From: Candidatus Nealsonbacteria bacterium
GTDB lineage: Bacteria > Patescibacteriota > Minisyncoccia > Minisyncoccales > CAZKCU01
Direction: 5' to 3'
NCBI GenBank assembly: GCA_047456305.1
Contig: CP179888.1
Span: 116,421-180,420, forward strand
Length of the DNA: 64,000 bases
In this document: in pieces, positions 219-63,829 of the stretch
Position numbering within the stretch: position 1 is the stretch's first letter
Layout: each line of letters opens with the position of its first letter
Notes under the pieces: generated by a model
Database searches by the model: none
Seen by the model: only the letters and a program-made list of their open reading frames with translations
Told to the model about the DNA's origin: nothing
Position numbers and translations under genes: made by a program

Positions 219-309
219 GGTTCTCATCTTGGTCTTATGGAGAGGCTCTTTGCTATAAACAGGAAGAGAACTGACTGACTTCTTTAATTTAATTTTTTTG
301 ACTGATGGC

Positions 310-452
310 GAAGAGTACTTCATCCGTCGAGTCGAAGACAAGACGAAAGAAGAAAAACTTTTCTTCGCACTCTTCTTCACCTTCCCGAGTCGCAACGAAG
401 GGCGGAGAAGAGATTTATCTCTTCGAGTCGCTTCCTTCGGAAGCTCGGTTTT
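310..452. repeat. Copy of modular palindromic repeat family (module cttcgcttccttcggaagctcggtt plus tccgtcgagtcg...cttcttcaccttc)
   Basis: Direct sequence matches to 23620-23755 (reverse orientation), 27531-27745, 26103-26262. The ORF-track ORF 298..546 is this repeat read as protein and is not a gene. Confidence 0.7.
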
Positions 453-717
453 TAAAGCCTTACTTTTTAATTTAATTCTTTTCCTCAATCGTCTCCCAAT
501 TTTACTTTTTTTAGATTGTTTTTTTCGAGCCATTAGTTTAGTTTAATCTGTTGAATATTTAAGGTCAATACCCTGTACTCATTGATATCCGACCTCAATT
601 AGAGATATATTAAACAATCAACTAACTTTCAGGGTAATTTAAAATTTCTCCCTTTTTTATTAGGTACAAATAACAATCCTATTCTTTAAATTAATTTTTA
701 GTTCTATCTGTTATTAT

Positions 718-3384: not shown

Positions 3385-3539
3385 ATTTTCAAAATATTAT
3401 TTACTTATGTTTGACCTTGATGCATTTATTCTACCAAAAAACCGTCTCCTTGGCGAGGCGGCGACAAAAAATCGTCATTCCCGAATCTGAAATCAAAAAA
3501 AACGGCCAAGATTAAAATTAAGGGCAAATTTTGTCAAAA

Positions 3540-3892: not shown

Positions 3893-4513
3893 CTACAGTA
3901 GACCTAGTTTAGTTAAATCTTCTCTTAATTGTTCCGGACTCTGAAAATGAATTCCGTACATTCCTAACTCCTTTGCTGTTTCAATATTGACAAGTTTATC
4001 ATCTACAAAAACACAGGCTTTGGCTGGAAGATCTAGTTTCTTAAGCATAACCTCATAAATTTTGGGGTCAGGTTTCCTAAGACCTTCTTTACAAGACCAA
4101 ACAAAAACCTCAAATCCTATATCTCTAAGTCTTTTAAATCTTCCCATCTCTTTATTAGCTAAAACATGAACATCAATTATGTTTGATAAAAGAGCTAAAC
4201 GAACTCCTTTCGCTTTTAATTCGCTAAGAATTTCCCACGATTCTTTTATGTCTTTAGACCATTTCTTATAGGTCTTGGACCAAAAATCTTTGGTAAACTC
4301 TTCAGATAACTTTACCCTGGCTTCGACTTCAAATTTTCTCCAAAAGCCCTCCTCATCAATTTTACTTGCAGACCATTTTCTATAAAGAGGATCTACAGTG
4401 TTTTTTACTTTCTCTTTAGTAATTTTTAATTCGTTAGCAATTTTTGCATATATCAAAGGCCATTCATTTGTGGCTAACACTGAACCTAAATCAAAAATTA
4501 CTGCTTTAATCAT
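3893..4513 (-). CDS. HAD-superfamily hydrolase
   Basis: 206 aa. N-terminal DxD-type motif IKAVIFDLGSVL and C-terminal VFVDD motif typical of haloacid dehalogenase-like phosphatases. Confidence 0.75.
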   Translation of the reverse strand: MIKAVIFDLGSVLATNEWPLIYAKIANELKITKEKVKNTVDPLYRKWSASKIDEEGFWRKFEVEARVKLSEEFTKDFWSKTYKKWSKDIKESWEILSELKAKGVRLALLSNIIDVHVLANKEMGRFKRLRDIGFEVFVWSCKEGLRKPDPKIYEVMLKKLDLPAKACVFVDDKLVNIETAKELGMYGIHFQSPEQLREDLTKLGLL

Positions 4514-6757: not shown

Positions 6758-6849
6758 AATGCGAGCGAAGTAAAAATTATCTCTAGAATTACAATTTGTA
6801 GTAAAAAAATATCCCTAGAGGTATAATCGTTCCTTACGCTATTTATAGG

Positions 6850-7030
6850 CGAAGAGGATAAAATCCTCTTCTTCATCTTCGCTTCCATAAATGGAAGCTC
6901 GATTAATGAGTAAGCCGACCACTGTTTTTATTCTCTTTCAAAGCTTACATAATTAATAGAATTGAAGAAGAGGATAAAATCCTCTTCTTCATCTTCGTCT
7001 TCATAAATGAAGACTCGATACGTAAGGAAA
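6850..7030. repeat. Two tandem ~65-bp double-hairpin palindromic elements
   Basis: Copy 1 at 6850-6912 and copy 2 at 6963-7030. Hairpin 1 is gaagaggat-aaaa-tcctcttc. Hairpin 2 is gcttccat-aaa-tggaagc in copy 1 and gtcttcat-aaa-tgaagac in copy 2, which is a compensatory change. Confidence 0.75.
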
Positions 7031-8661: not shown

Positions 8662-9522
8662 TTAGTCTATTACCCCCATGCATCTCCAGTTTATTTCTGC
8701 CTCTTTTGTTGCAATATTAACAACACAGGCAGGATTACAACCTTCTTTCTCGATATCTAGATCCATCCACCATGTCCCTGTATCTGCATTACACATAGAA
8801 AATTCTAAGTAGCCTTTTAACTGATCGCCACATTCACTTGTTATAGCGATTTGCATGGCTTCAAACAAACTCATACTTTCGCCAGTCGGCGCAACACAAT
8901 GTTCTTCTCCCTCTGTAAATGTTCTCCCATCTGGTGTTTTGCATTGGCGTGGATAACTTTCCAGTATTGGATAACCAGCTTTAATACAATCATTAAAGCT
9001 GTATACTTCTCGTACACACGTTTCACCGTTAAAACATTTACCTTTTCCACAATCACAAATTTTCACTTCATGGCTAGATGCTGGAGCACAACCACAAGCA
9101 CCAACCACACAAGTATCGGGAAAGTCACCTACTGAAAGACAGCATAGCCCCGTACTAACAGTGCCACCTGAATTTATGCAAGCCTGTTCTAATCCATCAA
9201 AAACTCCTTCACATAGACCCTCTACACACTTACAAGATGTCGGTACGAGACAAAAACATTCTCCACTTGATTCCCATTTATAGTCTTTATTGAAACAACC
9301 ACAATTACAATCTCTAGTTTTACCAAAAACAACACAATCGTCATCATTGACACAGTTTTTCCCATCTTTTTTTTCCTCTGGCTTCTCTGTCTCGGGTAAT
9401 TCAGTAGGAGGAACTTCCTGTTGTTTTATCCAACCCAAAATTCCGCTGCCAACTACCACAGCTAAAACCAATACAATAATAATATATTTCCAATTAGTTC
9501 GAGGGTCTTTGAGAAAATTCAT
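8662..9522 (-). CDS. Membrane-anchored, extremely cysteine-rich extracytoplasmic protein (~40 Cys) with the shared C-terminal module
   Basis: 286 aa. TM anchor IIIVLVLAVVVGSGILGW. Central region dense in CxC, CxxC and CC motifs. C-terminal 65 aa paralogous to 2708..3088. Confidence 0.6.
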   Translation of the reverse strand: MNFLKDPRTNWKYIIIVLVLAVVVGSGILGWIKQQEVPPTELPETEKPEEKKDGKNCVNDDDCVVFGKTRDCNCGCFNKDYKWESSGECFCLVPTSCKCVEGLCEGVFDGLEQACINSGGTVSTGLCCLSVGDFPDTCVVGACGCAPASSHEVKICDCGKGKCFNGETCVREVYSFNDCIKAGYPILESYPRQCKTPDGRTFTEGEEHCVAPTGESMSLFEAMQIAITSECGDQLKGYLEFSMCNADTGTWWMDLDIEKEGCNPACVVNIATKEAEINWRCMGVID

Positions 9523-11953: not shown

Positions 11954-12042
11954 TTACCGAGCCCCGCCCTGCTCCGCAGAGCGGGGCGAAGGTGGAGATA
12001 AAACTTTAGTTTCATCGACTTATCGATTATTAATTATCACGA

Positions 12043-23593: not shown

Positions 23594-23619
23594 AAATCGA
23601 GTTTTTACGCAGTAAAAAC

Positions 23620-23755
23620 GAAGATGGAGATGAAAAATTTTTTTTCATCGACACCGAGCTTCCGAAGGAAGCGACTCGAAGAGATAAATCTCTTCTCTAC
23701 CCTTCGCTGCGACTCGGGTAGGTGAAAAAGAGGACGAAGTCCTCTTCGCCTACCA
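23620..23755. repeat. Palindromic repeat family copy (reverse orientation relative to 310-452) in the groES leader
   Basis: accgagcttccgaaggaagcgactcgaagagataaatctcttctc...ttcgctgcgactcgggtaggtgaa matches the reverse complement of 395-450 and of 361-390. Confidence 0.7.
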
Positions 23756-23772
23756 ATTTATTTTATTAGTGG

Positions 23773-23799
23773 TTAGCAAACACGACCTTTGAGTGCTAA
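23773..23799. promoter_or_regulatory. CIRCE-like inverted repeat (TTAGCAAAC-N9-GAGTGCTAA), candidate HrcA operator upstream of groES-groEL
   Basis: Right half-site is a perfect GAGTGCTAA. Left half is 7/9 to TTAGCACTC. Spacer is 9 nt. ~180 nt upstream of the groES start. No hrcA in window. Confidence 0.45.
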
Positions 23800-24352: not shown

Positions 24353-27300
24353 TTATTTTAGCATTTTCTTTAAATATTGTCCAGTATAACTTTTTTTGTT
24401 TTTGGTAATTTCAAATGGCGTTCCTTCAGTCACAATATAACCTCCCCTATCTCCTCCCTCAAGCCCTAAATCTATGACCCAATCTACGTTACGAATAATA
24501 TCGATATTGTGTTCAGACACAAGTACTGTATTTCCTTTTTCCACTAATCTTTTTAAAACCAAAACCAGTTTTTTAATATCGTAAGGATGTAAGCCAGTTG
24601 TCGGCTCATCTAAAATATAAAGAGTTCTGGCACTGGTTTTTTTAGAAAGTTCAGTAGATAGTTTTACTCTCTGGGCTTCTCCGCCAGATAAAGAAGGGGC
24701 TGGCTGACCCAATTGAACATAGCCTAAACCAACATCGTTTAAAGTTTTTAGTTTATAATATAGACCAGGAATATTTTTGAAAAATTCCAGCGCTCCCTCA
24801 ACTGTCATCTCTAAAATTTCAGCAATATTTTTCCCCTTGTATTCAATCCCTAATGTTTCCTTATCAAATCTTTTACCTTTACACTCCTGGCATTCAACGT
24901 AAACATCCGGTAAAAAATACATCTCAATCTTTATCTCTCCCTGACCCTCACAGGCCTCGCATCTTCCTCCCTTGACATTAAAACTAAAGCGACCCGGCTG
25001 ATAACCTCTGATTCTGGCTTCGCGGGTTTTAGAGAAAAGATCTCTAATATAAGAAAAGGCTCCGGTATAAGTTGCCGGGTTTGATCTCGGAGTTCTGCCA
25101 ATTGGAGATTGATCAACCAAAGCCACTTTATTTAAATTCTCAGTTCCTAAAATTTCTCGATGTTCTCCCGGCTCCTCTTTTGATTTATAAAATTTTCTCA
25201 TCAAAGCCCGGGCCAAAATGTCGTTCATCAAAGAACTTTTCCCAGAACCAGAAACGCCAGTAATACAGACAAACTTTCCTAAAGGAACCCTAACATCAAT
25301 ATCTTTCAAATTATGCTCCTTTGCCCCCTTAATCATTAAGCACTGTTGAGGCCTGGTTTCAACAGATTTTGGTTTCAATTTGATTTCTACTTTCTTTCGA
25401 CCGGCCAAATAATCTCCAGTAAGTGTATGAGCTTTAAGTAATTCTTTCGGTGTCCCCTCAAAAATAACTTTACCACCGTGTTCCCCTGCTCCAGGTCCAA
25501 TATCAATTACCCAATCAGATTTTTTAATAGTTTGTACATCATGTTCGGTTAAGACCACTGAGTTCCCCAAATCTCTAAGTTTTTTTAAAGTTTCAATCAA
25601 TCTTCCCTGGTCCCTGGCATGAAGACCAATAGATGGTTCGTCTAAAATATATAAAACTCCGGTTAATCTTGAACCAATTTGGGTAGCCAATCTTATTCTC
25701 TGTTCCTCACCCCCAGCCAAGGTTTTAGTTTTTCTATCCAAAGTCAGATAATCCAAGCCAACATCAATCAGAAATTGCAAGCGATTGATAATTTCTTTAA
25801 TAATTGGTTGGGCAATCTTGAATTCATTTTCGCTTAAGGTTTTGCGTCTCTTCCTGGTATTTTGCCGCCTCGGTTTCGCGATTTCTTCAAAAAATTCTTT
25901 TATTTTATCAATGCTCATTCCGACAATCTGATCAATCGATTTCCCTGTTATTGTTACTGCTAAGGCTTCTGGTTTTAATCTTTTCCCCTGGCACTTCTCA
26001 CATCTTCTCTCAATCATATATTTCTCAATTTCCTGACGAGCCGCTTCAGAGTCAGTTTGATAGTATCTTCTTTCCAGATTAGGAATTACTCCCTCAAAGA
26101 TCGAGCCTGCCCTCGCAGGCGAAGGTGAAGATGAAGCTTTAGCTTCATCGCCAATCGAGCTTTCGCTCGGCGAATCAAAGGACATTCTGTTCTTTTCTAC
26201 CCTTCGCTGCGCTTGGGTAAGCGAAGATGAAGAAGAAGGAATCTTCTTCGACGTGTTCGATCCATAAAGAATAATATCTAAAATTTTTTTTGATAGATTT
26301 TTAATGGGTGTATCTAATGAAAAATTACATTTTTCAGCTAAATCGGAAAGTTGCCACCAAAAATAACCCTGTCTTCCTATTTTGTGGGAAGCATGAGCCC
26401 AGGGAAAAATTGCTCCTTCTGAAAGAGATAAATTGGGATTAGGGATAACCAATGAGGGCTCAACTTCTAATTTCTCTCCCAATCCCTGACAGGCTGGGCA
26501 AGCTCCATAAGGACTATTGAAAGAAAAAAATCTTGGCTCTAATTCTGGCAGAGAAATTCCGCACTCCTCGCAGGCAAATTGTTCTGAAAAGACTTCGTCT
26601 TTTGATTTTTGACGGGCGAAGAGAACTTTGTTCTCTTCTTCCCCCTCGCTCTCCACCAAATCTTGGTGGAGAGCTCGGTTTTTAACATTTGGTATTTGAC
26701 TTACAATTAGGATGCCTTTTCCTAATTTTAAAGCCATTTCTAGAGAATCGACTAACCTTGACTTGTCTAAATCTTTATCAAGAATCAGTCTATCCACCAC
26801 CACCTCAATGTTGTGTTTTTTGTAGTGAGAAAGTTTTAATCCTGAGGCTTCCTCTATCGCCGAGCTCCGCAATGCGGAGCGAGGTGGAAGATGAGGTAAA
26901 ACCTCATCGATCCGATAAATTATTCCATCAATCCTCACCCTAACAAATCCTCCTCTCTGAATTTCTTCTAAAATCCCCCGGTGTTCTCCTTTTTTTCCTC
27001 GGATTACGGGCCCCAAAATGATAATTTCTTTCCCTTTGGGCAACTTCAAAATCTGTTCCGTAATCTGATCTATGGTCTGGCGAGTAATTAGTTTGCCACA
27101 TTTGGGACAATGAGGTTTTCCAACTCTGGCAAACAAAAGCCTAAGATAATCATAAATTTCAGTAATGGTGCCTACGGTCGAACGAGGATTATGGGCTGCT
27201 TTTCTTTGGTCAATTGAAATTGCAGGAGAAATTCCCTCGATTTTATCAACATTAGGTTTTTTCATTACCCCCAAAAATTGCCTGGCATAGGCAGATAGTG

Positions 27301-27472
27301 ATTCAACGTATCTCCTTTGGCCTTCAGCATATAAAGTATCAAAGGCTAAAGAAGACTTTCCAGAACCAGAAATACCGGTAATCACCACCATTTTATTTTT
27401 GGGAATATCAACGTTTATGTTCTTTAGATTATGCACTCTGGCGCCTCGAATTTTAATAAAATCGCCTTTCAT
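24353..27472 (-). CDS. uvrA: Excinuclease ABC subunit A (UvrA), ~90 aa longer than typical owing to in-frame repeat-derived insertions
   Basis: Two ABC ATPase modules: Walker [11 protein letters not shown] twice, signatures LSGGE, Zn-finger CxxC modules. 1039 aa. 26103-26262 encodes [47 protein letters not shown] from the repeat family. Confidence 0.95.
26103..26262. repeat. Intragenic copy of palindromic repeat family, in frame within uvrA
   Basis: tctacccttcgctgcgcttgggtaagcgaagatgaagaagaagg matches 23696-23740. Also contains palindromes gcctgccctcgcaggc and gaagctttagcttc. The uvrA reading frame is uninterrupted. Confidence 0.7.
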
Positions 27473-27530
27473 AGAAGTTATCCATTATACTCTAAATTTC
27501 CGAATCTTTCAAGAAGGGGTAAAATAAAAG

Positions 27531-27745
27531 TGGCAAAGAGAACTTTGTTCTCTTCTTCACCTTCGCTTCCTTCGGAAGCTCGGTTGGCAAAGAGAACTTC
27601 GTCCGTCGAGTCGCTACGAGACGAAAGAAGAAATACTTTTCTTCGTACTCTTCTTCACCTTCGCTTAGCGAGATTTTGCGAAGCAAAAGCGAAGATGGAA
27701 AAGAGGCTTGCCTCTTTGACCCATAAATGAAAGCTCGGTTAATGA
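27531..27745. repeat. Composite palindromic-repeat copy between uvrA and capA; overlaps annotated capA start
   Basis: Contains cttcgcttccttcggaagctcggtt, tccgtcgagtcgctacgagacgaaagaagaaatacttttcttcgtactcttcttcaccttcgct, aaagaggcttgcctctttgac and cataaatgaaagctcggttaatg, which match modules at 310-452, 6880-6905 and 63281-63331. Confidence 0.7.
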
Positions 27746-28797
27746 AAAAGATTTTTCCTTGGTTAATTTTAATTAGCTTTATCATTGCCTTAGGTTTATT
27801 TCTTTTAATTGAAATCTATCGATTTCCGAAATCAATAGATTATTCCGAACCGAGAGTAGATGAATTGATTGAGGAAAAAACAATCACTCTAATTTTGGTT
27901 GGCGATATAATGCTTGACCGTGGAGTGGAATATATGGTTGAAAAACAAGGAGGTGGAGATTTCAGGTTCCCATTCTTGAAAATCAGCGATGAACTAAAAG
28001 GAGCAAATCTCCTTTTTGGAAATTTGGAAGGGGTAATTTCTGATAAAGGAATTAAGGTCGGCAGTATTTATTCTTTTAGAGCCGATCCAAAAGCAATTGA
28101 AGGATTAAAATTTGCCGGCTTTAATCTTTTATCTTTGTCTAATAATCACGCCTTTGACTACGCAAGAGAAGCCTTAGAAGATTGCCTATTTAAGCTAAGC
28201 AAAGGAGGAATTGGTTATGTTGGAGCTGGTTTTACAGAAAAAGAGGCTTATTCTCCTTTTGTCAAAGACTACAACCCGCCCACCACATCCTCCCATTCCT
28301 CGCTTCACTCGGAACAGGCCCCTATCGAGGGTACTAAAATTGCTTTTTTGGCTTATACTAATTTAGGACCTGAAGCCTGGAAAGCTGGCGAGAAAAATTC
28401 TGGGATTGCTTGGATTTCAGAAAAAGATTTTGAAAAAATTAAAAAAGATATTGAAAATGCTAAATCTCAAGCTGATATTTTAATTGTTTCTTTACATGCC
28501 GGAGAGGAATATCAAAAAACGCCTACTCAATTTCAAATTGAATTTTCTAAAATGGCAATTGAGGCTGGAGCAGATTTAATAGTTGGCCATCACTCTCACG
28601 TAATTCAACCGAATGAAAAATATGGGAATGGCTATATTTTTTACAGTTTAGGAAATTTCATTTTTGACCAAGGCTTTTCCGAAGAGACAATGAGAGGACA
28701 AATTATTGAAGTTTTGATAGAAAACAAACAAATAAAAGAAGTTATTACAAAAGAAATTAAAATAAACAATTTTTTCCAACCAGAGATTTTAGAGTAA
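27727..28797 (+). CDS. capA: CapA/PgsA-like metallophosphatase-fold protein (poly-gamma-glutamate/capsule biosynthesis family), membrane-anchored
   Basis: LILVGDIMLDRG, FGNLEG, LSNNHAFDY, HAGEEY, GADLIVGHHSHVIQP motifs. First ATG lies inside a repeat, so the second ATG (MKKIF) may be the true start. Confidence 0.8.
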   Translation: MKARLMKKIFPWLILISFIIALGLFLLIEIYRFPKSIDYSEPRVDELIEEKTITLILVGDIMLDRGVEYMVEKQGGGDFRFPFLKISDELKGANLLFGNLEGVISDKGIKVGSIYSFRADPKAIEGLKFAGFNLLSLSNNHAFDYAREALEDCLFKLSKGGIGYVGAGFTEKEAYSPFVKDYNPPTTSSHSSLHSEQAPIEGTKIAFLAYTNLGPEAWKAGEKNSGIAWISEKDFEKIKKDIENAKSQADILIVSLHAGEEYQKTPTQFQIEFSKMAIEAGADLIVGHHSHVIQPNEKYGNGYIFYSLGNFIFDQGFSEETMRGQIIEVLIENKQIKEVITKEIKINNFFQPEILE

Positions 28798-29555: not shown

Positions 29556-30983
29556 ATGGAGAAATTCAAGTTTTTACCAAAGGATAAAATTTCTCAGCTT
29601 CCCAAAGTTCCTGGAGTCTATGCATTTAAAAAAGGTGCTAAGCTCCTTTATATTGGCAAGGCGGCGAATCTCAAGGAAAGAATAAAACAACATGAAGATT
29701 TGCTTAGCTTAACTAAACAAATCGGCTATATTAAAACCAATTCGGAAATTGAGGCTTTGATTTTGGAGGCAAATTTAATAAAGAAATATAAACCAAAGTA
29801 TAATGTAACGTGGCGAGATGATAAAAATTATTTCTTTGTCGGAATCACCAAAGAGGACTTCCCCCAAGTTTTTATCACCCACCAACCCACCAAAATTTTT
29901 GCTTCGCAAAAACTTAGGCGGGCGAGCCAAAAATTAAAAAGTAATTATATTGGTCCTTTTGTAGACGGTACTGCCTTAAAAGCAACTTTAAAAATTTTGA
30001 GAAAGATTTTCCCTTACCGAACTTGTAAAAATCTGCTAAAAAAACCTTGCCCTCCCAAATTTTTAGATCAATCAGTAAAACCAACTAAACTTACAGAACC
30101 CCAAAAACTTGGGAGGGCTTGTCTCTGGTATCAACTTGGCAGATGCCCCGCCCCTTGTTTGTTAAAGTCTAAGTTGGGAGAACAAATTCCCGGTCTGGAA
30201 ACTAAAATAAAGAAAGAGTGTCAAAAAAATATAAAAAATATAATGAAAATTTTACAAGGAAAGAAAATTCGAGTGCTAATTGATTTAAAAAGGGAAATGA
30301 AAAAAGCCTCTTTAATCCAAGATTTTGAAAAGGCAGCAAAAATTAGAGATAAAATAAGGGCTTTAGAAAAAGTTTTGGCTCATGCTAAAATTTTTGAGCT
30401 CCAACTTTCTCAAGCGGTAAACTGGAACCAAATTCAAAAAACTTTACAAAAAATTTTAAAAACAGAAGATAGAATTTCTCGCATTGAGGCCTATGATATT
30501 TCAAATATCCAGGGCCAGGAAGCTACCGGTTCCATGATTACTTTTATAAAAGGCCTACCTGATAAAAAATTCTATCGAAAATTTAAGATTAAAACAGTTG
30601 GAAAACCAAATGACGTGGCTATGCTCAAAGAAATATTGCATAGGAGAATTAACCATCCTGAATGGGGCTGGCCAGATTTAATTTTAATTGATGGAGGAAA
30701 AGCCCAACTAAATGCGGCTCTTCAATGTTTAAAGTATAAGTTTAAAGAAATGAGAGTTATGGCTTTAGCTAAAAAGAAAAATGAATTATTTATTAAAGGA
30801 AGAAAAGAGCCGATTTTGCTCAAAAAATTGCCGAGGGCGAAGAAAATAGATTTTCTTCTTGATCCTTCGCTAACGCTCGGGAGAGAAATTTTCAATTTAA
30901 TCTTGCAGCTTCGTGATGAAGCTCACCGATTTGCCATTTCTTACCATAAAAAATTAAGAAAAAAGAAATTAATAGAAGGTTGA
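29556..30983 (+). CDS. uvrC: Excinuclease ABC subunit C (UvrC), apparently lacking the C-terminal (HhH)2 domain
   Basis: N-terminal GIY-YIG (GVYAFKKGAKLLYIGKAANLKERIKQH). UVR motif (LIQDFEKAAKIRDKIRALEK). RNase H-like endonuclease region (AYDISNIQGQEATGSMITF). 475 aa versus ~600 aa typical. Confidence 0.75.
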   Translation: MEKFKFLPKDKISQLPKVPGVYAFKKGAKLLYIGKAANLKERIKQHEDLLSLTKQIGYIKTNSEIEALILEANLIKKYKPKYNVTWRDDKNYFFVGITKEDFPQVFITHQPTKIFASQKLRRASQKLKSNYIGPFVDGTALKATLKILRKIFPYRTCKNLLKKPCPPKFLDQSVKPTKLTEPQKLGRACLWYQLGRCPAPCLLKSKLGEQIPGLETKIKKECQKNIKNIMKILQGKKIRVLIDLKREMKKASLIQDFEKAAKIRDKIRALEKVLAHAKIFELQLSQAVNWNQIQKTLQKILKTEDRISRIEAYDISNIQGQEATGSMITFIKGLPDKKFYRKFKIKTVGKPNDVAMLKEILHRRINHPEWGWPDLILIDGGKAQLNAALQCLKYKFKEMRVMALAKKKNELFIKGRKEPILLKKLPRAKKIDFLLDPSLTLGREIFNLILQLRDEAHRFAISYHKKLRKKKLIEG

Positions 30984-31077
30984 CCTTTAATTAAATATTT
31001 GCTACCCTTTATATACCTGAGCGAAGCAAAAGGTGAAGATGAAGGCAAACTCCGAAGGAGGTAAACTTCATTGACTT

Positions 31078-33744: not shown

Positions 33745-33829
33745 GCCGAAGTGGCGAAATTTGGTAAACGCGACGGCCCCAGGAGCCGTTGGGCGAAAGC
33801 CCTTGTGGGTTCAAATCCCACCTTCGGCA
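33745..33829 (+). tRNA. tRNA-Leu (anticodon CAG read from loop CCCAGGA; C at position 33 is unusual)
   Basis: GCCGAAG acceptor. Long variable arm TGGGCGAAAGCCCT. T-arm GTGGG-TTCAAAT-CCCAC. 85 nt. The ORF-track ORF 33751..35532 spuriously starts inside this tRNA. Confidence 0.7.
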
Positions 33830-33831
33830 CT

Positions 33832-35532
33832 ATGAAAAAATCTCAAAAAAATCTCAGGATTATCCCTCTTGGTGGATTAGGCGAGGTTGGCCGTAATATG
33901 ATGCTCCTTGAATGGCAAGAACGCCACCCTTCCTCAAGAGGGTCCCCTATTTTAATTATTGATATGGGTCTTGGTTTCCCGGGAGAAAATATGCCAGGTA
34001 TTGACTGTATTATTCCAAATATTTCCTATCTTAGAGGAAAAGAAAAGAACATCTTGGGAGCGGTTCTGACTCACGGCCATTACGACCATATTGGTGCTAT
34101 CCCCTATATTATCCCCCGACTTGGGTTAATACCAATGTACGCTTCTCAATTAACTAAGGGGATTATCTTAAAAAGACGGGAAGATTTTCCTAATCAACCA
34201 AAACTTAACATAGAAAACATAAAAGATGGCTCTAAAATTCAATTGGGACCCTTCCAAGTAGAATTTTTCAAACAGAATCATAATATCCCTGATAACCTTG
34301 GATTATTTATTAAGACCCCTCTCGGAAATATTGTCCATACTTCTGATTTTAAATTTGATGAATCTCCGGTCAATGAAAGCCCTACTGATTTTGAGAAATT
34401 AAAAAACATTGGCAAAAGAGGGATTTTGCTTTTGATGTCTGAATCAACCGGAGCTGAAGAAGAAGGTCATTCTCTTTCAGAAAAAACAATTTTTGAAAAT
34501 TTAGACAAGATTTTTAAAAAAGCAGAGGGAAGAATTATTGCTGCCTCCTTTGCTTCCCTGATTAACAGAATTCAACAATTAATTATCCTTTCAGAAAAAT
34601 ATGGAAGAAAGGTAACAATTGAAGGACATAGCATGAAAATTAATGTTGAGATTGCTCAAACTTTAAAAAAGATTGAAGCTAAAAAGGGAACTTTTATAAG
34701 AACAAAAGATATTGGCAAATTTCCTGACTCAAAAATAACAGTTATCTGCACTGGTGCTCAGGGAGAAGAAGAGGCAGTTTTTATGAGAATTGCCAATCGA
34801 GAACATAAATTTATCCGGCTCAAGAAAGAAGATACAATTATTTTTTCTTCTTCGGTCATCCCTGGAAATGAAAGAAGTATTCAGTTCTTAAAAGACCAAT
34901 TTCACCGTCAAGGAGCTAAGGTTTTCCACTACAAAATGATGGATATTCATGCTTCCGGCCATGCCAGAGAAGAAGAGTTAAAAGAAATGCTCAGAATTAT
35001 GAAGCCAAAATTCTTTCTGCCTATTTATGGCCAATACTCAATGCTTGTCAGGCACGCCCAGTTAGCTGAAGAAGTAGGTTTATTAAAACAAAACATAATG
35101 GTGGCTGAAAATGGAGAGGTTATAAACCTAAGCTCAAAAAGAATTTTCATTGAAAAGAAAAGAGTTCCCTCAAATTATGTAATGGTTGATGGCTTGGGAA
35201 TTGGCGATGTAGGAGAAGTAGTCTTGCGAGACCGCCAAACCTTGGCAAAAGATGGGATGTTTGTGATTGTGGCCGTTGTGGATAGACAGGCTGGTAGAGT
35301 CAAGGGTTCTCCTGATATAATATCAAGAGGATTTGTTTATCTTAAAGAATCAAAGGAATTACTCAAAGAAACGAGAAAAAAGGTAACAGATATTGTCAAT
35401 AGAGCAGCAGGTTCTGGTGGAGCGGTTAATTGGAGCTATGTCAAAAATGAAATAAGAAACAAAATCGGCCAATTTCTTTTTTCCAAAACTCAGAGAAGGC
35501 CAATGATTTTACCTGTGGTCATAGAAGTGTAA
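33832..35532 (+). CDS. rnj: Ribonuclease J (beta-CASP metallo-beta-lactamase RNase)
   Basis: Start reassigned to ATG at 33832 (MKKSQKNLRIIPLGG). HxHxDH motif THGHYDHIG. Beta-CASP motifs. C-terminal domain. Confidence 0.85.
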   Translation: MKKSQKNLRIIPLGGLGEVGRNMMLLEWQERHPSSRGSPILIIDMGLGFPGENMPGIDCIIPNISYLRGKEKNILGAVLTHGHYDHIGAIPYIIPRLGLIPMYASQLTKGIILKRREDFPNQPKLNIENIKDGSKIQLGPFQVEFFKQNHNIPDNLGLFIKTPLGNIVHTSDFKFDESPVNESPTDFEKLKNIGKRGILLLMSESTGAEEEGHSLSEKTIFENLDKIFKKAEGRIIAASFASLINRIQQLIILSEKYGRKVTIEGHSMKINVEIAQTLKKIEAKKGTFIRTKDIGKFPDSKITVICTGAQGEEEAVFMRIANREHKFIRLKKEDTIIFSSSVIPGNERSIQFLKDQFHRQGAKVFHYKMMDIHASGHAREEELKEMLRIMKPKFFLPIYGQYSMLVRHAQLAEEVGLLKQNIMVAENGEVINLSSKRIFIEKKRVPSNYVMVDGLGIGDVGEVVLRDRQTLAKDGMFVIVAVVDRQAGRVKGSPDIISRGFVYLKESKELLKETRKKVTDIVNRAAGSGGAVNWSYVKNEIRNKIGQFLFSKTQRRPMILPVVIEV

Positions 35533-36544: not shown

Positions 36545-36576
36545 TTATCTTCACACTTCTGAAGATTTATTTTTCA
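36545..36576 (+). terminator. Terminator hairpin (atcttca-cacttc-tgaagat + ttaTTTTT) after trpS, overlapping the stop of the convergent gene
   Basis: 7-bp perfect stem followed by a T-run on the plus strand. Confidence 0.45.
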
Positions 36577-37997
36577 AGCGCCTCGATGTTTAAATTTATG
36601 TCAGAATTCCAGTCTATCTCCTGGTAATTATGAAGTAATCTATCAATGTAGTTCCTTAAATAACTATATCTCTCCTCTGTTTTTGCCTCAAATTTAACCG
36701 TAAGATAAGGGGCATTTTGTGAATAGCGGATGACAAACATCCCATCGGATATATCAACCCTAACTCCATCGCCGGCTCGTTCATCATCAATAATTTTGGC
36801 GTCTGGAAAATCTTTTTTAAGCACCGGGCTAATTTTTTTAATTAGCTCGACTTTTTTTTCATCAGCACAATATATTTTTATTTCAGGACTCGATATATAC
36901 TTAGGAAGTAAATCTTTGGCAGCCGATAGTGACTGATTAGTTTTTGCCAGATAACTTAACAAACGCAAAGTTGAATAAAGCCCGTCATCATGATTGTAAA
37001 AATCAGCCGAAAAGAAGAAATGTCCTGATAACTCTCCGATAAAGGCTGCTTTAACTTCCTGATTTTTTTTCTTTAAAAATGAATGGCCAGTCCGCCACAT
37101 AAAGGGCTTACCACCATATTTTATAATCGTTTCTTCAACAACTTTTGAGCAAAGGGTATTGTACATAATCGTTGCTCCCGGATACTCTTTCAAAACATCA
37201 ATAGTAAATAGCGCCACCAACACATCATTCCAAATAATATTTCCTTTATCGTCAATAATTCCAATTCGGTCACCATCTGTATCATATGAAAAACCGATGT
37301 CTGCTTTTTCCTGTAATACCCGCTCTCTTAGACGTTGAGCAACAGTAATTCCGGTTGGGTCTGGCGTGCCCAAAGGAAAAGAAGAATCTAGCTGACAATT
37401 ACTCTCAATAACTTTACACCCCGCCCTTTTCAATAAATCTGGGGCAATTACCCCGGCTGTTGAACAACTGGGGTCCACCACTGCCTTGAATTCTTTGCCA
37501 ATTGGTAATCTTTTTAGCAAATCAGTAAAATATGCCTCGCGAATATCCTGCTTTTCAATTTTCCCTACTGTATCACCTTCCTCGTAATCTTCCTTTTCAA
37601 CCATTCGCCTTAACTCCTGAATGCTGTCACTGACCAAGGTTTCAGAAAAATCAATAGCAAATTTAAAACCATTGTATTCAACCGGATTGTGCGATCCAGT
37701 GATATAAACCCCACCTTTGCAATTTAAATAGTATTGCGACCAATAAAAAGTTCCGACAAGATCCATACCAATATTAATTATATTAATACCAGCCCAGCTT
37801 AAACCTTTAATCACGGTTTCGCTATATTGAGGGCTTGTCGCTCTTGAATCATAACTCACTACCGCTTTTTTAATGCCGCGTCTCTTCAAAAAGGTACCAT
37901 AAGCTTTTCCAATGTGCTCCACTATTTCCGGATCTAAATCTTTATCAACTATCCCCCGCACATCATAGCCGCGAAATATATAGGGGTTGATTTTCAT
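36567..37997 (-). CDS. Phosphoglucomutase/phosphomannomutase family protein
   Basis: Active-site TGSHNP, metal-binding DTDGDR, sugar-binding GELSGH motifs. Confidence 0.85.
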   Translation of the reverse strand: MKINPYIFRGYDVRGIVDKDLDPEIVEHIGKAYGTFLKRRGIKKAVVSYDSRATSPQYSETVIKGLSWAGINIINIGMDLVGTFYWSQYYLNCKGGVYITGSHNPVEYNGFKFAIDFSETLVSDSIQELRRMVEKEDYEEGDTVGKIEKQDIREAYFTDLLKRLPIGKEFKAVVDPSCSTAGVIAPDLLKRAGCKVIESNCQLDSSFPLGTPDPTGITVAQRLRERVLQEKADIGFSYDTDGDRIGIIDDKGNIIWNDVLVALFTIDVLKEYPGATIMYNTLCSKVVEETIIKYGGKPFMWRTGHSFLKKKNQEVKAAFIGELSGHFFFSADFYNHDDGLYSTLRLLSYLAKTNQSLSAAKDLLPKYISSPEIKIYCADEKKVELIKKISPVLKKDFPDAKIIDDERAGDGVRVDISDGMFVIRYSQNAPYLTVKFEAKTEERYSYLRNYIDRLLHNYQEIDWNSDINLNIEALEK

Positions 37998-41405: not shown

Positions 41406-43595
41406 TTAAAGTTTCTTCCAGTCATCTGACTCTTCCTCTTCTTCAGTCTTTATATAAACCTGGCGGGCTTTAGCCCCTTCTCCTGGTCCAACCACTCCCC
41501 TCGCTTCAAGTATATCAATAAGTCTTGCCGCCCTGGCATAACCAATCCGGAGATATCTTTGAAGTAAAGAAGCTGAGGCCTTTCTTGAACGAATCACTAA
41601 TTTTTTGGCCTCTTCATAAAGAGGATCTTCTCCCTTAAAAAAGGTTTCAGCCATTTCTCCGGTTTCATCCATTTCTCTTTTTTCTAACTCCGTTTTCAAA
41701 TTTTCTTCAAGTTCATTTTTAAAAATAGGAGGCATACCTTTTTTCTTGAAAAATTCCATTACCCTTTTTACCTCTCTCTCTGAAACATAAGCTCCCTGCA
41801 TTCTTCTTGGTTTAGCCGATTCAGCCGAAAGATACAAAAGGTCTCCTAATCCCAAAAGTTTTTCTGCTCCGGCCATATCTAAAATTGTCCTTGAATCAAC
41901 TTGAGAAGCGACCTGGAAGGCAATCCTTGAGGTTATGTTAGCTTTAATTAAGCCGGTAATTACTTCAACCGAGGGCCGCTGAGTAGCAACTACCAGATGG
42001 ATGCCAACCGCTCTAGCCATCTGAGCCAATCTAACAATTCCAGCTTCAACTTCTTTACCTCTGGCAGCCATTAAATCAGCTAACTCGTCAATAATTAAAA
42101 TAATATAAGGCATTAAACGGTCGCCCTTTTTTAAAACTGCTTCATTATAAAGAGTGATATCTCGAGTTTTCGTCTCGGCCAAAATTTCAAACCTTCTTTC
42201 CATCTCTAAGGTTAACCATTTTAATACATTTATCGTTTTTTGGGCATTATAAATTACCGGGGTTAAAAGGTGGGGGAAATCTTGATAGACTGGAAATTCC
42301 ACTCTTTTGGGGTCAATTAAAATAAATCTTAAAATCTCCGGTCCATTTCGATAAAGGAGACTCAAAATTAAAGAGTTTAAATAAATTGTCTTTCCAGTAC
42401 CCGTCGCGCCTGCAACTAAAAGATGGGGCATCCTTCCTAAATCTGTAAAAACAGCCTTCCCGGTTACATCTTTCCCTAAGGTAATGGCTAAATTCGAAGG
42501 ATGATTTTGAAATTCAGGAAGAGAAAAAAGATTTTTCAGTCTTACCCTCGTTCGGATTTTGTTTGGAACCTCAATTCCCACTAAGGGTTTGCCAGGAATA
42601 GGAGCTTCAATTCTAATAGGATGAGCGGCCAGGGCTAAGGAAAGATCATTACTTAAAGCGGTAATTTTTGATAATTTTACTCCTTCAGCTGGCTTTAAGG
42701 TATATTGAGCAACAGTGGGGCCAATGTTTACTTCGGACATCTCTACTGGAATATCAAAATTTTGTAAAGTTTTTTTAATGATTGCCGAATTTACTTTGAT
42801 ATCACCACTGGAAGGTTCCCCGCTATCTGACTCAAGTAAATCCAGAGGCGGAGACTGATAGCCTGCCAGACTAGAAATTACAGAAGGTTCCAAAGCTTTA
42901 GTTTTTAACTCCGGAAAGACGGGCTGAGGTTCAGCTTTTTCCGTCTCTTTGGGAGCAAAGGGCGGGATTTCTTTTACCTTAAATTTTGGCCTAAAAATTC
43001 TTTTAATAAAAGAAGGTCTAGAAGGTTCTTTTTCCAGAACTTTTTCTTCGGTTTTTGAAGGGATAGGTTGTTTTAAAAATTGCCAGAAAATTAAGCCCCC
43101 GATAATAATTAGAACTCCAGATATAATTTGAGTTACCCAAAAACCAAATAATTTAATCAAGGATAAGCTAAAAATATAACCTATCCACCCCCCTTCCCCC
43201 TGTCCTATTCCAGGCTTAACTGGGGCGAGTTTTTGGTCCGAATTTAGGCTCCCCAAAATTCCAGAAATTCCCAAAACCAAAAGTAAAATTGCTAAAATTA
43301 CCGGCAATAAAAATTTTTTGTATTTGGTGGTTAAAAATACCCCACCGGCTATTAGAAAAATCAAAGGAATTATAAAAACTGTCTTTCCTATTAAAAAAGT
43401 AAGTCCTTTTATTAGAGCTTTCCCGGCTATCCCGGCTTTATCCGCAAAAGAAAATATCAGAATTATTGCTACTAACAAAAGTAAAATTCCCAAAATCCAT
43501 CTTTTGGTTCTCCCGGACAAAGCGGAGAGGTAGCCTGGATTCCTTGTTCTTCTAAAGGTTTTTCTATTCTTTTTTTGATTTTTCTTTTTAGCCAT
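41406..43595 (-). CDS. ftsK: DNA translocase FtsK/SpoIIIE
   Basis: N-terminal TM helices. Walker A LLVAGATGTGKT. C-terminal winged-helix gamma domain LLQRYLRIGYARAARLIDILEARGVV. Confidence 0.9.
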   Translation of the reverse strand: MAKKKNQKKNRKTFRRTRNPGYLSALSGRTKRWILGILLLLVAIILIFSFADKAGIAGKALIKGLTFLIGKTVFIIPLIFLIAGGVFLTTKYKKFLLPVILAILLLVLGISGILGSLNSDQKLAPVKPGIGQGEGGWIGYIFSLSLIKLFGFWVTQIISGVLIIIGGLIFWQFLKQPIPSKTEEKVLEKEPSRPSFIKRIFRPKFKVKEIPPFAPKETEKAEPQPVFPELKTKALEPSVISSLAGYQSPPLDLLESDSGEPSSGDIKVNSAIIKKTLQNFDIPVEMSEVNIGPTVAQYTLKPAEGVKLSKITALSNDLSLALAAHPIRIEAPIPGKPLVGIEVPNKIRTRVRLKNLFSLPEFQNHPSNLAITLGKDVTGKAVFTDLGRMPHLLVAGATGTGKTIYLNSLILSLLYRNGPEILRFILIDPKRVEFPVYQDFPHLLTPVIYNAQKTINVLKWLTLEMERRFEILAETKTRDITLYNEAVLKKGDRLMPYIILIIDELADLMAARGKEVEAGIVRLAQMARAVGIHLVVATQRPSVEVITGLIKANITSRIAFQVASQVDSRTILDMAGAEKLLGLGDLLYLSAESAKPRRMQGAYVSEREVKRVMEFFKKKGMPPIFKNELEENLKTELEKREMDETGEMAETFFKGEDPLYEEAKKLVIRSRKASASLLQRYLRIGYARAARLIDILEARGVVGPGEGAKARQVYIKTEEEEESDDWKKL

Positions 43596-61694: not shown

Positions 61695-61714
61695 TTAACT
61701 TAAACTTTAATTAG

Positions 61715-63829
61715 TCAAAGAGAATAAATCCTCTTTTCCACCCTTCGCCTACGGCTCGGGTAGCAGATTAACTTTAGGAATTCTTTCTCTTCAATTGTTT
61801 TTACTCCCAGGTTTTTCGCTTTTTCAAATTTTGAGCCGGGTTCTTTGCCAACAACAAGGAAATCGGTTTTTTTTGAAACTGACTCAGAAATTTCCCCGCC
61901 CAAAAGCCGGATTTCTTCTTTTGACTCTTCTCTGCCCATTGTTTCCAAACTACCTGTAAGCACAAATACTTTCCCTTTTAACTTTAAATCTTTAGTTTTA
62001 ATCTTTGGATTTTCTATTCTTATTCCAACTTTTTTTAGTTTTTCCAAAAATTCCAAATTACTTTTTTGGGAAAACCAATCATAAATACTTTTAGCCACTA
62101 CTGGGCCAATATCCATAACTTTTTCAAGATCTCTGAGGTTTGCCTTTTTTAATTTTTCTACAGAACCAAAATAGTCTGCCAAATCCATACTAGTTTCTTC
62201 TCCAACATTTCTAATTCCTAAAGCATAGATAAATTTTGACAATTGAATTTTTTTTCGAGACTGAATCGCCTCGATTAAATTTTTAACCGATTTTTCAGCA
62301 AACCTTTCAAGAGGTAATAAATCTCCTTCCTCAAGCACAAATAAATCGGATGGGTCAGAGACTAATCCTTCATCAATCATTCTGTCAACAATTTTAGGAC
62401 CAAGGCCTGAAATATCAAAAGCTCCTTTTGAAATAAAATGACGAAAATATTCTCTCAGCTGAGCTGAACATTTTGGATTTGGGCAACGCCAAACAACTTC
62501 TCCACTGGGTTTGATAATTTTTACTCCACAGGCCGGGCATTTTTTTGGCATTCTGAAAACCTTTTCTTTTCCGGTTCTTAGTTCTGGTAAAACTTTGATA
62601 ATATCAGGGATAACATCCCCTGCCCTGCCGACAATAACCGTATCACCAATTTTTACTCCTAATTTTTTTATTTCTTCTTCGTTATGAAGAGTGGCTCTTG
62701 AAATTGTGACTCCGCCAACCTCCGCAGGTTTCAAAATTGCTACCGGGGTTAAAGCTCCGGTTCTGCCTACCTGAACAATAATATCTTTAATAATGGTGGT
62801 GGCTTGTTTTAAAGGAAATTTATAAGCTATAGCTCCCCGGGGAGCCTTTCCCACAATCCCCAATTTCTCAAAAATTTTATTTGGATTAATAATAACCACA
62901 ATCCCATCAATTTCATAGGAGAGCTTTTCTCTTAATTTTTGGCTCGCTTTATGAAAATTAAAAACTTCTTTCAGATTCTTGCAATATTTATTATGGGGAT
63001 TAGTTTTAAAACCTAAGGCTTTTAAAATCTGGTGTTTTTCTTGATGAGTTTTTTGACCAAGGTCAGTAACTAAATCATAGATAATCGAATCGAGGCGGCG
63101 AGAAGCTGTTACTTTTGGGTCAAGCTGCCTGATAGACCCTGCTGCCACATTCCTTGGATTAGCATAAGGAGAAAGATTCTTTTTTATTTGTTCTTTATTT
63201 AATCTCTCGAATTCTTTTTTTGAGATAAAAACCTCTCCCCTCACGACAAGCCTTGAAGGAATTTCTAATTTTAAACAGTCAAAGAGGACTTTGCCCTCTT
63301 TGACACCTTCGCTTCCAAAGGAAGCTCGGTTTCTAATTTCTAATTTAAGTGGTATAGCTTCAATTGTTTTTAAATTTTGAGTAACATCTTCGCCAATTAT
63401 CCCATCGCCTCTGGTCGAACCGGTTTTAAAAATCCCCTGCTCATAAATCAGCTCAATAGCTAAACCATCAATTTTAAGCTCGCAGAAAAAATCTATCTCT
63501 GATTTTTCTTCAGTTGTTAACAGTTTTGAAATTCTCTCCAGCCAATCTTTCATATCATCTTCTGAAAAAGCATCATTAAAAGAAAACATCGGTTTAGGGT
63601 GTCTAATTTTCTCAAATTTTTCTAAGGGTTTGCCTCCTACTCTTTGGCTGGGAGAATCAGGAGTAAGAAGCACGGGAAATAATTTTTCTAAATCAAAAAG
63701 TTCTTTTTTCAAAGAATCAAGAGCAGCTTCAGAAATCTCTTGACGATCATGAACATGATATAAATAACGGTGATGGTTAATCACCTTTTTTAATTTTTCA
63801 ATCCTTTTTTTAGCTTCTTGTTTAATCAT
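61715..63829 (-). CDS. ligA: NAD-dependent DNA ligase LigA, carrying an in-frame repeat insertion (about 63258-63346)
   Basis: Adenylation motif KIDGLAI (KxDG). Zn finger CPACGVKIIKPSGEVVWRCPNPKC. HhH and BRCT regions. Insertion ...IPLKLEI[RNRASFGSEGVKEGKVLFDCLKLEI]PSRL flanked by duplicated AAATTAGAAATT. Confidence 0.9.
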   Translation of the reverse strand: MIKQEAKKRIEKLKKVINHHRYLYHVHDRQEISEAALDSLKKELFDLEKLFPVLLTPDSPSQRVGGKPLEKFEKIRHPKPMFSFNDAFSEDDMKDWLERISKLLTTEEKSEIDFFCELKIDGLAIELIYEQGIFKTGSTRGDGIIGEDVTQNLKTIEAIPLKLEIRNRASFGSEGVKEGKVLFDCLKLEIPSRLVVRGEVFISKKEFERLNKEQIKKNLSPYANPRNVAAGSIRQLDPKVTASRRLDSIIYDLVTDLGQKTHQEKHQILKALGFKTNPHNKYCKNLKEVFNFHKASQKLREKLSYEIDGIVVIINPNKIFEKLGIVGKAPRGAIAYKFPLKQATTIIKDIIVQVGRTGALTPVAILKPAEVGGVTISRATLHNEEEIKKLGVKIGDTVIVGRAGDVIPDIIKVLPELRTGKEKVFRMPKKCPACGVKIIKPSGEVVWRCPNPKCSAQLREYFRHFISKGAFDISGLGPKIVDRMIDEGLVSDPSDLFVLEEGDLLPLERFAEKSVKNLIEAIQSRKKIQLSKFIYALGIRNVGEETSMDLADYFGSVEKLKKANLRDLEKVMDIGPVVAKSIYDWFSQKSNLEFLEKLKKVGIRIENPKIKTKDLKLKGKVFVLTGSLETMGREESKEEIRLLGGEISESVSKKTDFLVVGKEPGSKFEKAKNLGVKTIEEKEFLKLICYPSRRRRVEKRIYSL
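63258..63346. mobile_element. MITE-like palindromic repeat inserted in frame in ligA with 12-bp target-site duplication (AAATTAGAAATT on coding strand)
   Basis: Insert aaagaggactttgccctctttgac + cttcgcttccaaaggaagctcggtt matches modules at 27700-27720 and 27555-27594. Flanked by the direct repeat ttctaatttt / ttctaatttctaattt on the plus strand. 75 bp total, so the frame is preserved. Confidence 0.65.

Follow-up and report, generated by a model that had tools for sequence, protein, structure and literature searches.

Short hairpin-forming DNA repeats, probably mobile, lie between genes and in frame within genes of a Nealsonbacteria genome

The 64,000-nt stretch of the Candidatus Nealsonbacteria bacterium genome analysed here (GenBank assembly GCA_047456305.1, contig CP179888.1, positions 116,421 to 180,420; hereafter the window) is ~35% GC and holds small, tightly packed genes. 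Among them are ftsZ, groES, uvrA, uvrC, ligA, a PGA_cap gene and a gene assigned to the sigma-70 (RpoD-like) family by Pfam. Between and within these genes lies a family of short palindromic repeats, which forms the subject of this report. A covariance model of the repeat unit finds 12 loci with ~20 units and ~1.2 kb in total, which amounts to ~1.9% of the window or one locus per 5 kb (Table 1). [quoted passage not shown] That interpretation was essentially right, and the family is confirmed here, but six of the 12 loci turn out to lie in frame inside genes: three sites in uvrA, one in uvrC and two in ligA.

The covariance model (R1) was built from 35 units and run over the whole window with filters off and a cut-off of E<0.01. 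All matches are confined to the 12 loci, with none elsewhere in the window, and the top units score 78-44 bits (E 1e-23 to 2e-12). An independent repeat search recovered an 87-nt pair (363-449 and 23653-23739) that is 92% complementary, together with two direct families, D9 and D17, at 26603, 27520 and 63266 and at 428, 27563 and 63309. With an nhmmer profile of the unit, 287 kb comprising the window and related loci from the Candidate Phyla Radiation (CPR) gave 63 matches (E<0.01), of which 14 fall in the window, whereas each of five composition-preserving block shuffles gave 0; the matches therefore do not disappear against shuffled sequence. Units occur on both strands (~9 plus, ~8 minus) with no strand bias, and GC skew is uniformly negative. 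Every place where a copy had first been proposed holds one, although the one given as 61735-61780 was offset from its unit at 61712-61762, and the copies at 11955-12021 and at uvrA site 1 (26858-26913) had been missed; the earlier estimate of at least eight copies in 64 kb compares with the 12 loci found by R1.

Table 1. Copies of the repeat in the window, arranged by the 12 loci recognised with covariance model R1 (bit scores are those of R1)
Locus	Feature	Span	Strand	Setting and remarks
305-452	Composite copy	305..452	+	Outer unit with expanded hairpin 1 plus nested units; upstream of ftsZ (minus strand)
6846-7020	Canonical 57-nt unit	6846..6904	+	Intergenic; 78 bits, E 1e-23; DNA fold two hairpins, z -4.9
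6846-7020	Second canonical unit	6962..7020	+	Intergenic, 58 nt downstream of the 6846..6904 unit; 67 bits
11955-12021	Unit ending GCTCGGTA-A-ATG	11955..12021	-	Abuts start (11953) of sigma-70 (RpoD-like) gene; 51 bits
23595-23774	Three-unit composite	23595..23774	-	Fills groES 5' region; last unit ends CTCGATT-T-ATG (groES start 23593)
26099-26260	uvrA site 3, two tandem units	26099..26260	-	Sense, in frame; adds ~51 amino acids; 58 and 25 bits
26613-26680	uvrA site 2, 66-nt unit	26613..26680	+	Antisense, in frame; 58 bits; not in L004
26858-26913	uvrA site 1, 54-nt unit	26858..26913	-	Sense, in frame; 44 bits
27530-27739	Canonical 54-nt unit	27530..27585	+	First of tandem pair, uvrA-PGA_cap spacer; 71 bits
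27530-27739	Expanded unit	27586..27739	+	Hairpin 1 loop insert; inverted unit 27666-27722 (minus) nested in hairpin 2
30834-30882	uvrC, short 51-nt unit	30834..30882	+	Sense, in frame; 28 bits; tandem duplicate in L002
31014-31077	Degenerate unit	31014..31077	-	Between uvrC and holin-like gene; 21 bits, E 4e-5
61712-61762	ligA 3' end unit	61712..61762	+	Antisense; 35 bits; replaces stop codon
63276-63331	ligA internal 54-nt unit	63276..63331	+	Antisense, in frame; encodes NRASFGSEGVKEGKVLFD; 62 bits

The basic unit reads G[G/T]CGA[A/T]GAG - hairpin 1 - CTTCTTCAYCTTCGC - hairpin 2 - GCTCGRTT or, spelled out, 5'-G[G/T]CGA[A/T]GAG-hairpin 1-CTTCTTC-AYC-TTC-GC-hairpin 2-GC-TC-GRT-T. Lengths of 54 and 57 nt are the commonest, and 24 of the 35 units are divisible by three. 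The stem of hairpin 2 differs in sequence between copies, and the stems vary freely yet remain paired; conservation of sequence is found in the linker, in an asymmetric internal loop (TTC/TC) and in the 3' tail. When folded, short units form two hairpins, with z-scores of -3.2 to -6.6 relative to dinucleotide shuffles, in keeping with the hairpins first proposed. The structure was tested on the 35-unit alignment (A2), with partner columns slid by 1-3 positions as a control: 95.5% of cells are paired in the real three-helix structure as opposed to 37-57% in the slid control, and 13 of 18 pairs are changed on both sides as opposed to at most 7. Compensatory changes back all three helices. The third is a 3-bp closing stem, A-Y-C/G-R-T, that encloses the TTC/TC internal loop around hairpin 2. 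Its Y and R positions covary in the same alignment (C-G 27, U-A 5), and they are concordant in all 21 true matches from a genome collection searched with a pattern that left both unconstrained. G-U pairs make up only 5 of 617 cells, and this near-absence fits a palindrome kept at the DNA level or on both strands.

The two ends of the unit, GGCGAAGAGGA and AACCGAGCTTCC (the reverse complement of the 3' end), have only a CGA core in common; when the last 12 nt of the consensus are reverse-complemented, they agree with its first 12 nt at only ~4 positions, and the unit consensus contains no terminal inverted repeats. Read by eye, the consensus is free of stops in four or five of its six frames. 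The hairpin modules of the first-pass annotation, described there as interchangeable, are real but all belong to this one unit: gcttcc-N-ggaagc+tcgRtt is hairpin 2 with the tail, gaagaggat-aaaa-atcctcttc is hairpin 1 and cttcttcaccttcgc is the linker. Long 'modular' copies are tandem or nested arrays of it. A known structured RNA family was rejected, since Rfam 15 at the gathering score returned three tRNAs only over the window and permissive Rfam scans of the repeat-rich stretches gave sub-threshold chance matches only.

The genes entered in frame encode UvrA (a 1039-residue ORF (open reading frame)), the NAD-dependent ligase LigA (704 residues) and UvrC (475 residues). All three UvrA segments appear as extra sequence when the protein is aligned to solved UvrA structures. 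At the 3' end of ligA, the unit adds a tail of 15-16 residues, CYPSRRRRVEKRIYSL, and a new stop; this tail is in none of the 19 other LigA sequences aligned. The internal ligA copy is present in P0121, P0122 and P0124, and missing from P0123, P0125, P0128 and locus L123. Intragenic copies are read in 5-6 frames and in both orientations, so that the element is defined by its DNA and not by an encoded peptide. Its two stop-free antisense frames yield hydrophilic peptides (NRAS..GSEGEEE..VLFA and TELPFMEAKVKKRT.SSSP), and its sense frames are hydrophobic or, in the variant with an ATAAAT loop, contain a stop. Relaxed selection specific to DNA-repair genes, an idea prompted by the uvrA, uvrC and ligA hosts, was rejected as a general explanation because copies in metagenomes hit aminoacyl-tRNA synthetases, ribosomal proteins, GyrA, RpoB/C, TsaD and others.

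We then compared syntenic loci of related genomes (nucleotide identity ~95% for L002, ~92% for L004 and ~90% for L003), and the copies proved polymorphic for presence and absence. A 208-nt block before PGA_cap is exactly missing from L002 and L004, where the empty site reads AAAAGT^AATG. The 54-nt unit at uvrA site 1 is likewise exactly missing from L002, whose UvrA is 94% identical, and from L004; sites 2 and 3 are missing from L004 and/or L003, the net gain at site 3 being +153 nt relative to both. The groES leader measures ~21 nt in L002, L003 and L004; in the window it measures ~177 nt. Two insertions are private to L002, which also has the uvrC unit duplicated in tandem (two copies, compared with one in the window); a 47-nt unit, one of these private insertions, sits exactly in the TTCG hairpin loop of the older copy at 31014-31077. 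Around ligA, locus L122 is 96-99.8% identical to the window and lacks the copy at the 3' end of the gene; it has a copy of 92% identity at another site, inside ligA, where both the window and L123 are empty. The two ligA copies, that of L122 and that of the window, are flanked by TA on each side, and each empty site has a single TA; the site at the end of ligA is empty in L122 and L123. These two copies represent independent, recent, transposition-like events. Clean empty sites, together with private copies in relatives that are 90-99.8% identical, indicate independent recent insertions rather than fragments of a gene.

The same polymorphism is visible at the protein level. UvrA orthologues of 70-94% identity range from 926 to 1104 residues, with the differences gathered at a few hot spots: P0002 (94% identical) is without the site 1 insert, P0003 and P0007 are without those at sites 1 and 3, and P0044 carries four tandem 18-residue units at site 3. 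LigA orthologues follow the same pattern of insert variation. In other lineages, these hot spots are occupied by unrelated palindromic or in-frame insert families, among them GGCCCCGTAG… in the spacer between uvrA and PGA_cap and GGTCTGTCGGTATCTGATACCGACAGAC in uvrA of L003 (9790-9960 and 10720-10800), the peptide PSTRAKLGAG.VPHRNEVSGAG at two different sites of UvrA P0016/P0048, and the inserts YDPPTTRGA… and PAFAKASAGKL of LigA P0178/P0192/P0214.

A pattern scan of a genome collection with one genome per species returned 116 loci. The pattern was too loose: ~95 of the 116, which lack hairpins and lie in GC-rich coding DNA, match by chance. All 21 true units come from low-GC metagenome-assembled genomes (MAGs) of Parcubacteria type, labelled Nealsonbacteria, 'Parcubacteria group', Candidatus Paceibacter normanii or Patescibacteria. 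Some of the assemblies are named 'uncultured Candidatus Saccharibacteria' (L003, L047 (GCA_964431915.1, CAYSLI01) and other 'binchicken' MAGs); since CAYSLI01 is syntenic with, and ~90% identical to, the Nealsonbacteria window, this label looks unreliable. A stricter pattern with 25 specified bases matched at least 120 metagenome contigs, which gave 119 usable units. Among the matches listed, to which all host counts from metagenomes refer, 63 of the 119 units lie inside long ORFs, 54 of them antisense and 9 sense; with apparent orthologues collapsed by eye, this corresponds to ~36 antisense host genes and 4 sense. Hosts named by Pfam are MetRS, ValRS, IleRS, LeuRS, AlaRS, PheRS-beta, TsaD, L18, L25, GyrA, a Mur ligase, MurB (two sites), PolX, DnaX, an M50 peptidase, Pth and a GT2 glycosyltransferase; UvrA, RpoB, RpoC and phosphoglucomutase were named by BLASTP to window proteins, so that the host families besides UvrA, UvrC and LigA number more than 20. 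We attribute the antisense excess among these pristine copies to filtering by selection and not to biased insertion; the window itself shows no strand bias. A phage vector was rejected, as all four viral-contig matches are chance matches in high-GC coding DNA. In the full-text literature on Patescibacteria, Parcubacteria, Nealsonbacteria and CPR, coverage of which is incomplete, we found no publication on this repeat family, and the genome paper on Nealsonbacteria DGGOD1a mentions transposases and no such repeats (bioRxiv 10.1101/2022.04.20.488981). The family has apparently not yet been described in this group.

Outside coding sequence, copies are often found right next to start codons. Three intergenic copies of the window end 0-1 nt before a real ATG, those of PGA_cap (27727), the sigma-70 gene (11953) and groES (23593). 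Other genomes yielded six more start-abutting copies; the ORFs that follow these have at least 101 to 781 codons, and two run off the end of their locus. An ATG lies within 0-2 nt of 20 of the 119 metagenome units (again among the matches listed; the rough chance estimate is ~6%). The expanded unit before PGA_cap ends GCTCGGTT-A-ATG and is matched by R1 at 27646-27740 (plus), with its nested inverted unit scoring 36 bits. In the groES copy, R1 matches 23595-23654, 23655-23697 and 23698-23752, and the RNA fold has a z of -5.7. A CIRCE-like inverted repeat (TTAGCACTC-N9-…TTGCTAA) is found upstream of groES both in the window (23775-23800) and in L002 (13550-13576); in the window the repeat array is placed between it and the groES ATG.

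Of the 48 long ORFs in the window (for example 8662..9522, 36567..37997 and 41406..43595), only ~4 have a Shine-Dalgarno-like motif within 30 nt upstream, and many genes have a TATAAT-like box 7-12 nt before the ATG, as in uvrA (start 27472), which reads TTGAAA-17-TATAAT-11-ATG. With few Shine-Dalgarno sites and boxes so close to the ATG, short or absent leaders seem to be the rule, and the sequence suggests that the mRNAs of this genome are mostly leaderless or have very short leaders. The empty PGA_cap site reads TAAAAT-7 nt-ATG, and the element lands exactly between box and ATG. Start-codon adjacency may reflect a target preference (for melted promoter DNA, or for TA beside ATG); alternatively, this may be the only tolerated position in intergenic regions of 60 bp. 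The junction GCUCGGUU^ may be a candidate processing point in the PGA_cap, groES and rpoD leaders. A promoter or Shine-Dalgarno site at the 3' end of the element was rejected: the ATAAAT loop is present in some units only, and the hairpin 2 sequences of ATG-abutting units are unrelated, which leaves no consistent signal of either kind.

The composite copy upstream of ftsZ contains R1 matches at 305-391, 402-450 and 383-429 (minus). The plus-strand ORF 298..546 is simply one open frame of this copy and is spurious, so the original view that it is not a gene holds. On the minus strand (3-542), the ftsZ frame (…KIRVVGIGGGGG…) stays open for ~100 codons upstream of the conventional Met, through the 310-452 repeat. 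As this frame is open, the copy may sit in an N-terminal extension and not in intergenic DNA, and FtsZ may have an element-derived N-terminal extension that starts at MARKKQSKK. The description of intergenic repeats with some intragenic members thus needs adjustment: both kinds exist, but half of the loci are in frame in genes and the 310-452 copy is possibly coding as well.

With half of the loci in frame in uvrA, uvrC and ligA, the nearest analogue is the Rickettsia palindromic element (RPE) and not REP. As far as the summary of Ogata et al. 2000 in PMC10969869 goes, RPEs are palindromes inserted in frame in unrelated housekeeping genes of a reduced genome, where they contribute an extra peptide; they also occur in non-coding DNA and have no transposase of their own. 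The Nealsonbacteria unit shares with them a stable hairpin, seen here in the folds and in the covariation of three helices, and in-frame insertion that leaves the ORF intact, seen in uvrA, uvrC, ligA and the metagenome hosts. It differs in size, with a core of 54-57 nt as opposed to ~100-150 nt, and in that RPE families are, within the same summary, confined to one genus and this one family extends over many genera. Moreover, its host phylum is Patescibacteria/Parcubacteria and not Rickettsiales, it uses several frames and both orientations, and it often stands immediately before start codons. The likeness is one of behaviour and not of compared sequence, so that the element would be an RPE analogue at most and not a member.

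Other families of bacterial repeats are more distant. Bacterial interspersed mosaic elements (BIMEs) of enterobacteria and BOX elements of pneumococcus are mosaics of a few short hairpin modules and are essentially extragenic. The repeat described here is similarly modular in build and variable in number and orientation; its modules, however, are copies of one unit, nested or in tandem. Elements derived from IS200/IS605 carry subterminal hairpins, lack terminal inverted repeats, duplicate their target little or not at all and have clean empty sites. Hairpins and clean junctions are shared with these, but a strand-specific insertion with orientation bias is not seen (~9 plus and ~8 minus units), the left flank has only a loose TTTTGAnA / A(-1) preference with no fixed target tetra- or pentanucleotide, and no TnpA gene was seen within the window. 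REP elements and the REPIN-RAYT system (PMC3116915) likewise involve short imperfect palindromes with covarying stems, many copies and higher-order clusters, whereas the present unit consists of two different hairpins and a closing helix. The consensus AGGCGAAGAGGAC..GCTCGGTT has no GTAG head of the kind that marks the 5' end of the 20-40 nt REP palindrome, the copies are not extragenic (63 of 119 metagenome units among those listed, besides half of the window loci, are intragenic), and no RAYT or Y1_Tnp domain was found in 30 ORFs scanned within the 64-kb window. With Correia elements and other bacterial MITEs (PMC10969869, PMC3184786) the unit has in common that it is small and non-autonomous, that some events have TA flanks, that it inserts into 5' regions, where it would become part of the transcript, and that it occasionally forms in-frame fusions. 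Its units are much shorter, terminal inverted repeats matching a parent insertion sequence (IS) are absent, no parent IS was seen in the window, and target duplication is inconsistent: TA/TA in two clean events, and 0-1 nt, GAT or heptad flanks in others. The term REP/MITE-like therefore stands for a modular family of short palindromes, but neither for the GTAG head and extragenic location of REPs nor for the inverted ends of MITEs. BOX elements are also mentioned in PMC10969869. PARCELs (PMC2996958) form tandem domains of 25 residues within surface ORFs of unknown function; they too are translated palindromic DNA with signs of horizontal spread among small-genome bacteria, whereas the element here occurs as single units in housekeeping enzymes or in intergenic DNA.

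We consider the repeats to be a family of short, non-autonomous, hairpin-forming mobile DNA elements that is native to Parcubacteria and behaves like RPE, a reading to which we give a probability of about 0.8. Units would spread to new sites, duplicate in tandem and nest in each other's hairpin loops, giving rise to composite copies. Insertions into variable surface linkers would be read through as 16-22 extra residues and so persist; the commonest lengths are multiples of three and stops are few, which would make in-frame insertions readable and tolerated. We infer that most copies are selfish or neutral. How the units move is a more tentative matter. A trans-acting HUH/Y1-like enzyme that recognises folded hairpins in single-stranded DNA is the agent that we favour, with somewhat worse than even prospects in our estimate, and the nested insertion exactly in a TTCG loop as well as the absence of terminal inverted repeats were counted in its favour. 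A bolder version, which we hold to be unlikely, is a radiation-wide and still active invader of coding sequence, whose unpaired motifs (the linker, the TTC/TC internal loop and the GCTCGRTT tail) would be the recognition site of a dedicated enzyme acting on transiently single-stranded DNA such as hairpin loops and the promoter open complexes of leaderless genes. Such an enzyme would explain the nested insertions, the adjacency of 0-1 nt to start codons and the seemingly 'designed' three-divisible length with few stops.

Several observations weigh against this picture of mobile, translated elements and of the way they move. No transposase, and hence no mobilising enzyme, was found among the 30 window ORFs scanned against Pfam. 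Junctions are heterogeneous: two clean events have TA on each side, one event has a GAT ambiguity of 3 nt, and another two show no duplication. T-rich TTTTGAN heptads surround many of the intragenic metagenome copies; in 11 of 76 cases the heptad on the left is a perfect match to that on the right, compared with 4.3 in shuffled pairs (both among the matches listed). A 7-bp TTTTGAN target duplication is only partly supported, however, as heptads exist in an 'empty' orthologue: at uvrA site 2 (26590-26612) they are present also where the core is missing. The lack of strand bias in the window also counts against a strict mechanism of the IS200/IS605 type. Between genomes with genes only ~75% identical, the units are 85-95% identical, a level that could reflect function as well as mobility. 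Translation of the inserts is presumed from intact frames only, and an AlphaFold2 model of UvrA built on an 18-sequence alignment (mean predicted local distance difference test score, pLDDT, 39) gives no support for the placement of the inserts at the surface. The heptads themselves flank intragenic antisense copies with one or two per side (L129, L130, L160, L204, L215 and others), and on the coding strand they read as SK/QK-rich linkers such as KIQNSK.

The heterogeneous junctions would sit well with a spread that needs no enzyme, by replication slippage, hairpin-primed template switching, gene conversion and tandem duplication. Nested and tandem arrays and the variation in tandem copy number (the uvrC unit in L002, the four UvrA units of P0044) speak for such processes, but they do not account for near-identical units that recur, with no homology in the flanks, at unrelated loci and in many host genes, and the strong conservation of unpaired motifs over a class-level radiation suggests recognition by a protein; we therefore regard an enzyme-free origin as improbable, though it deserves some weight. 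Slightly less credit goes to a TA-duplicating DDE transposase of the IS630/Tc1-mariner type, which would make the repeats classical MITEs like Correia elements. It would fit the TA flanks and single-TA empty sites of the two very recent ligA events, the enrichment of TA at the left boundary (11 of 43 against a background of 6.5%; right boundary 17 of 43 against 20%) and the many transposases carried by some Nealsonbacteria genomes (bioRxiv 10.1101/2022.04.20.488981). It is hard to reconcile with the lack of terminal inverted repeats, with the other clean events that show no TA duplication and with the insertion into a TTCG hairpin loop.

That the repeats are primarily functional cis-elements, such as a structured RNA or a DNA site for a conserved binding protein, with the coding copies as by-products, appears more doubtful still. 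They might, for example, be a 5'-leader, processing or stability signal for groES, rpoD and PGA_cap. Conserved linker, internal loop and tail between covarying stems, an identity of units between genomes above that of the surrounding genes, the fixed 0-1 nt distance of many units from start codons and the scarcity of Shine-Dalgarno sites would all be expected of such elements. Yet the groES and PGA_cap copies are missing in relatives 90-96% identical that have the same genes and promoters, copies lie in both orientations inside dozens of unrelated coding sequences, Rfam yields no match, and the rarity of G-U pairs would be less expected of an RNA under selection on one strand than of a double-strand or DNA palindrome. 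We give almost no credence to the possibility, left open by the first-pass annotation, that a single duplicated gene left the copies as its fragments, or that they are a protein repeat module selected for its peptide. Only the recurring peptides suggest it, and these are merely the two stop-free antisense frames; the use of 5-6 frames and both orientations refutes it together with the empty sites, which show independent insertions, and about half of the copies are intergenic.

The window contains several further features. A second small repeat family (…CTACCAAAAAACCGCCnnnnTGGCGA…) is found at 3417-3456, 4511-4550, 6241-6299 and 10563-10621, at the 3' ends of minus-strand genes; read on that strand, it consists of a GC hairpin with a T-run after it and looks like a shared intrinsic terminator. 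A 2337-residue ORF (53264-60277, minus), located where GC is locally higher (41-46%), contains tandem repeats with periods of 9, 21 and 156 nt and a dispersed motif of 37-58 nt, and is probably a large repetitive surface protein. tRNA-Leu(CAG) at 33745-33830 overlaps the GTG start of a 593-residue RNase J ORF (33751..35532); as RNase J orthologues have 560-568 residues, the true start is probably downstream. At 4656-5685 (minus), a gene for an AbiEii-type nucleotidyltransferase toxin adjoins a DUF6922 gene, a pair that looks like a type IV toxin-antitoxin system.

For annotation, the repeat matters because it creates spurious ORFs (298..546, 27431..27730 and 27492..27785) and alters the apparent starts, ends and lengths of real proteins, as in the spread of UvrA lengths among close relatives. 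The copies that lie between the -10 box and the start codon raise the question of how translation is initiated where Shine-Dalgarno sites are nearly absent. Since presence or absence of a copy separates strains that are 95-99.8% identical, copies can serve as strain markers in metagenomes. Essential enzymes of minimal genomes apparently tolerate repeated insertions of 16-50 residues, and the insertion sites amount to a natural map of permissive loops and to a source of rapid protein-length variation in CPR. As mobile DNA, this is a very short active element in genomes of 0.6 Mb, without inverted ends, consistent duplication or visible transposase, and hence a tractable case for how RPE-like elements move. 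If a dedicated enzyme does act on its unpaired motifs, the family would amount both to a new system of transposition and, for CPR bacteria, to a major source of variation in protein length.

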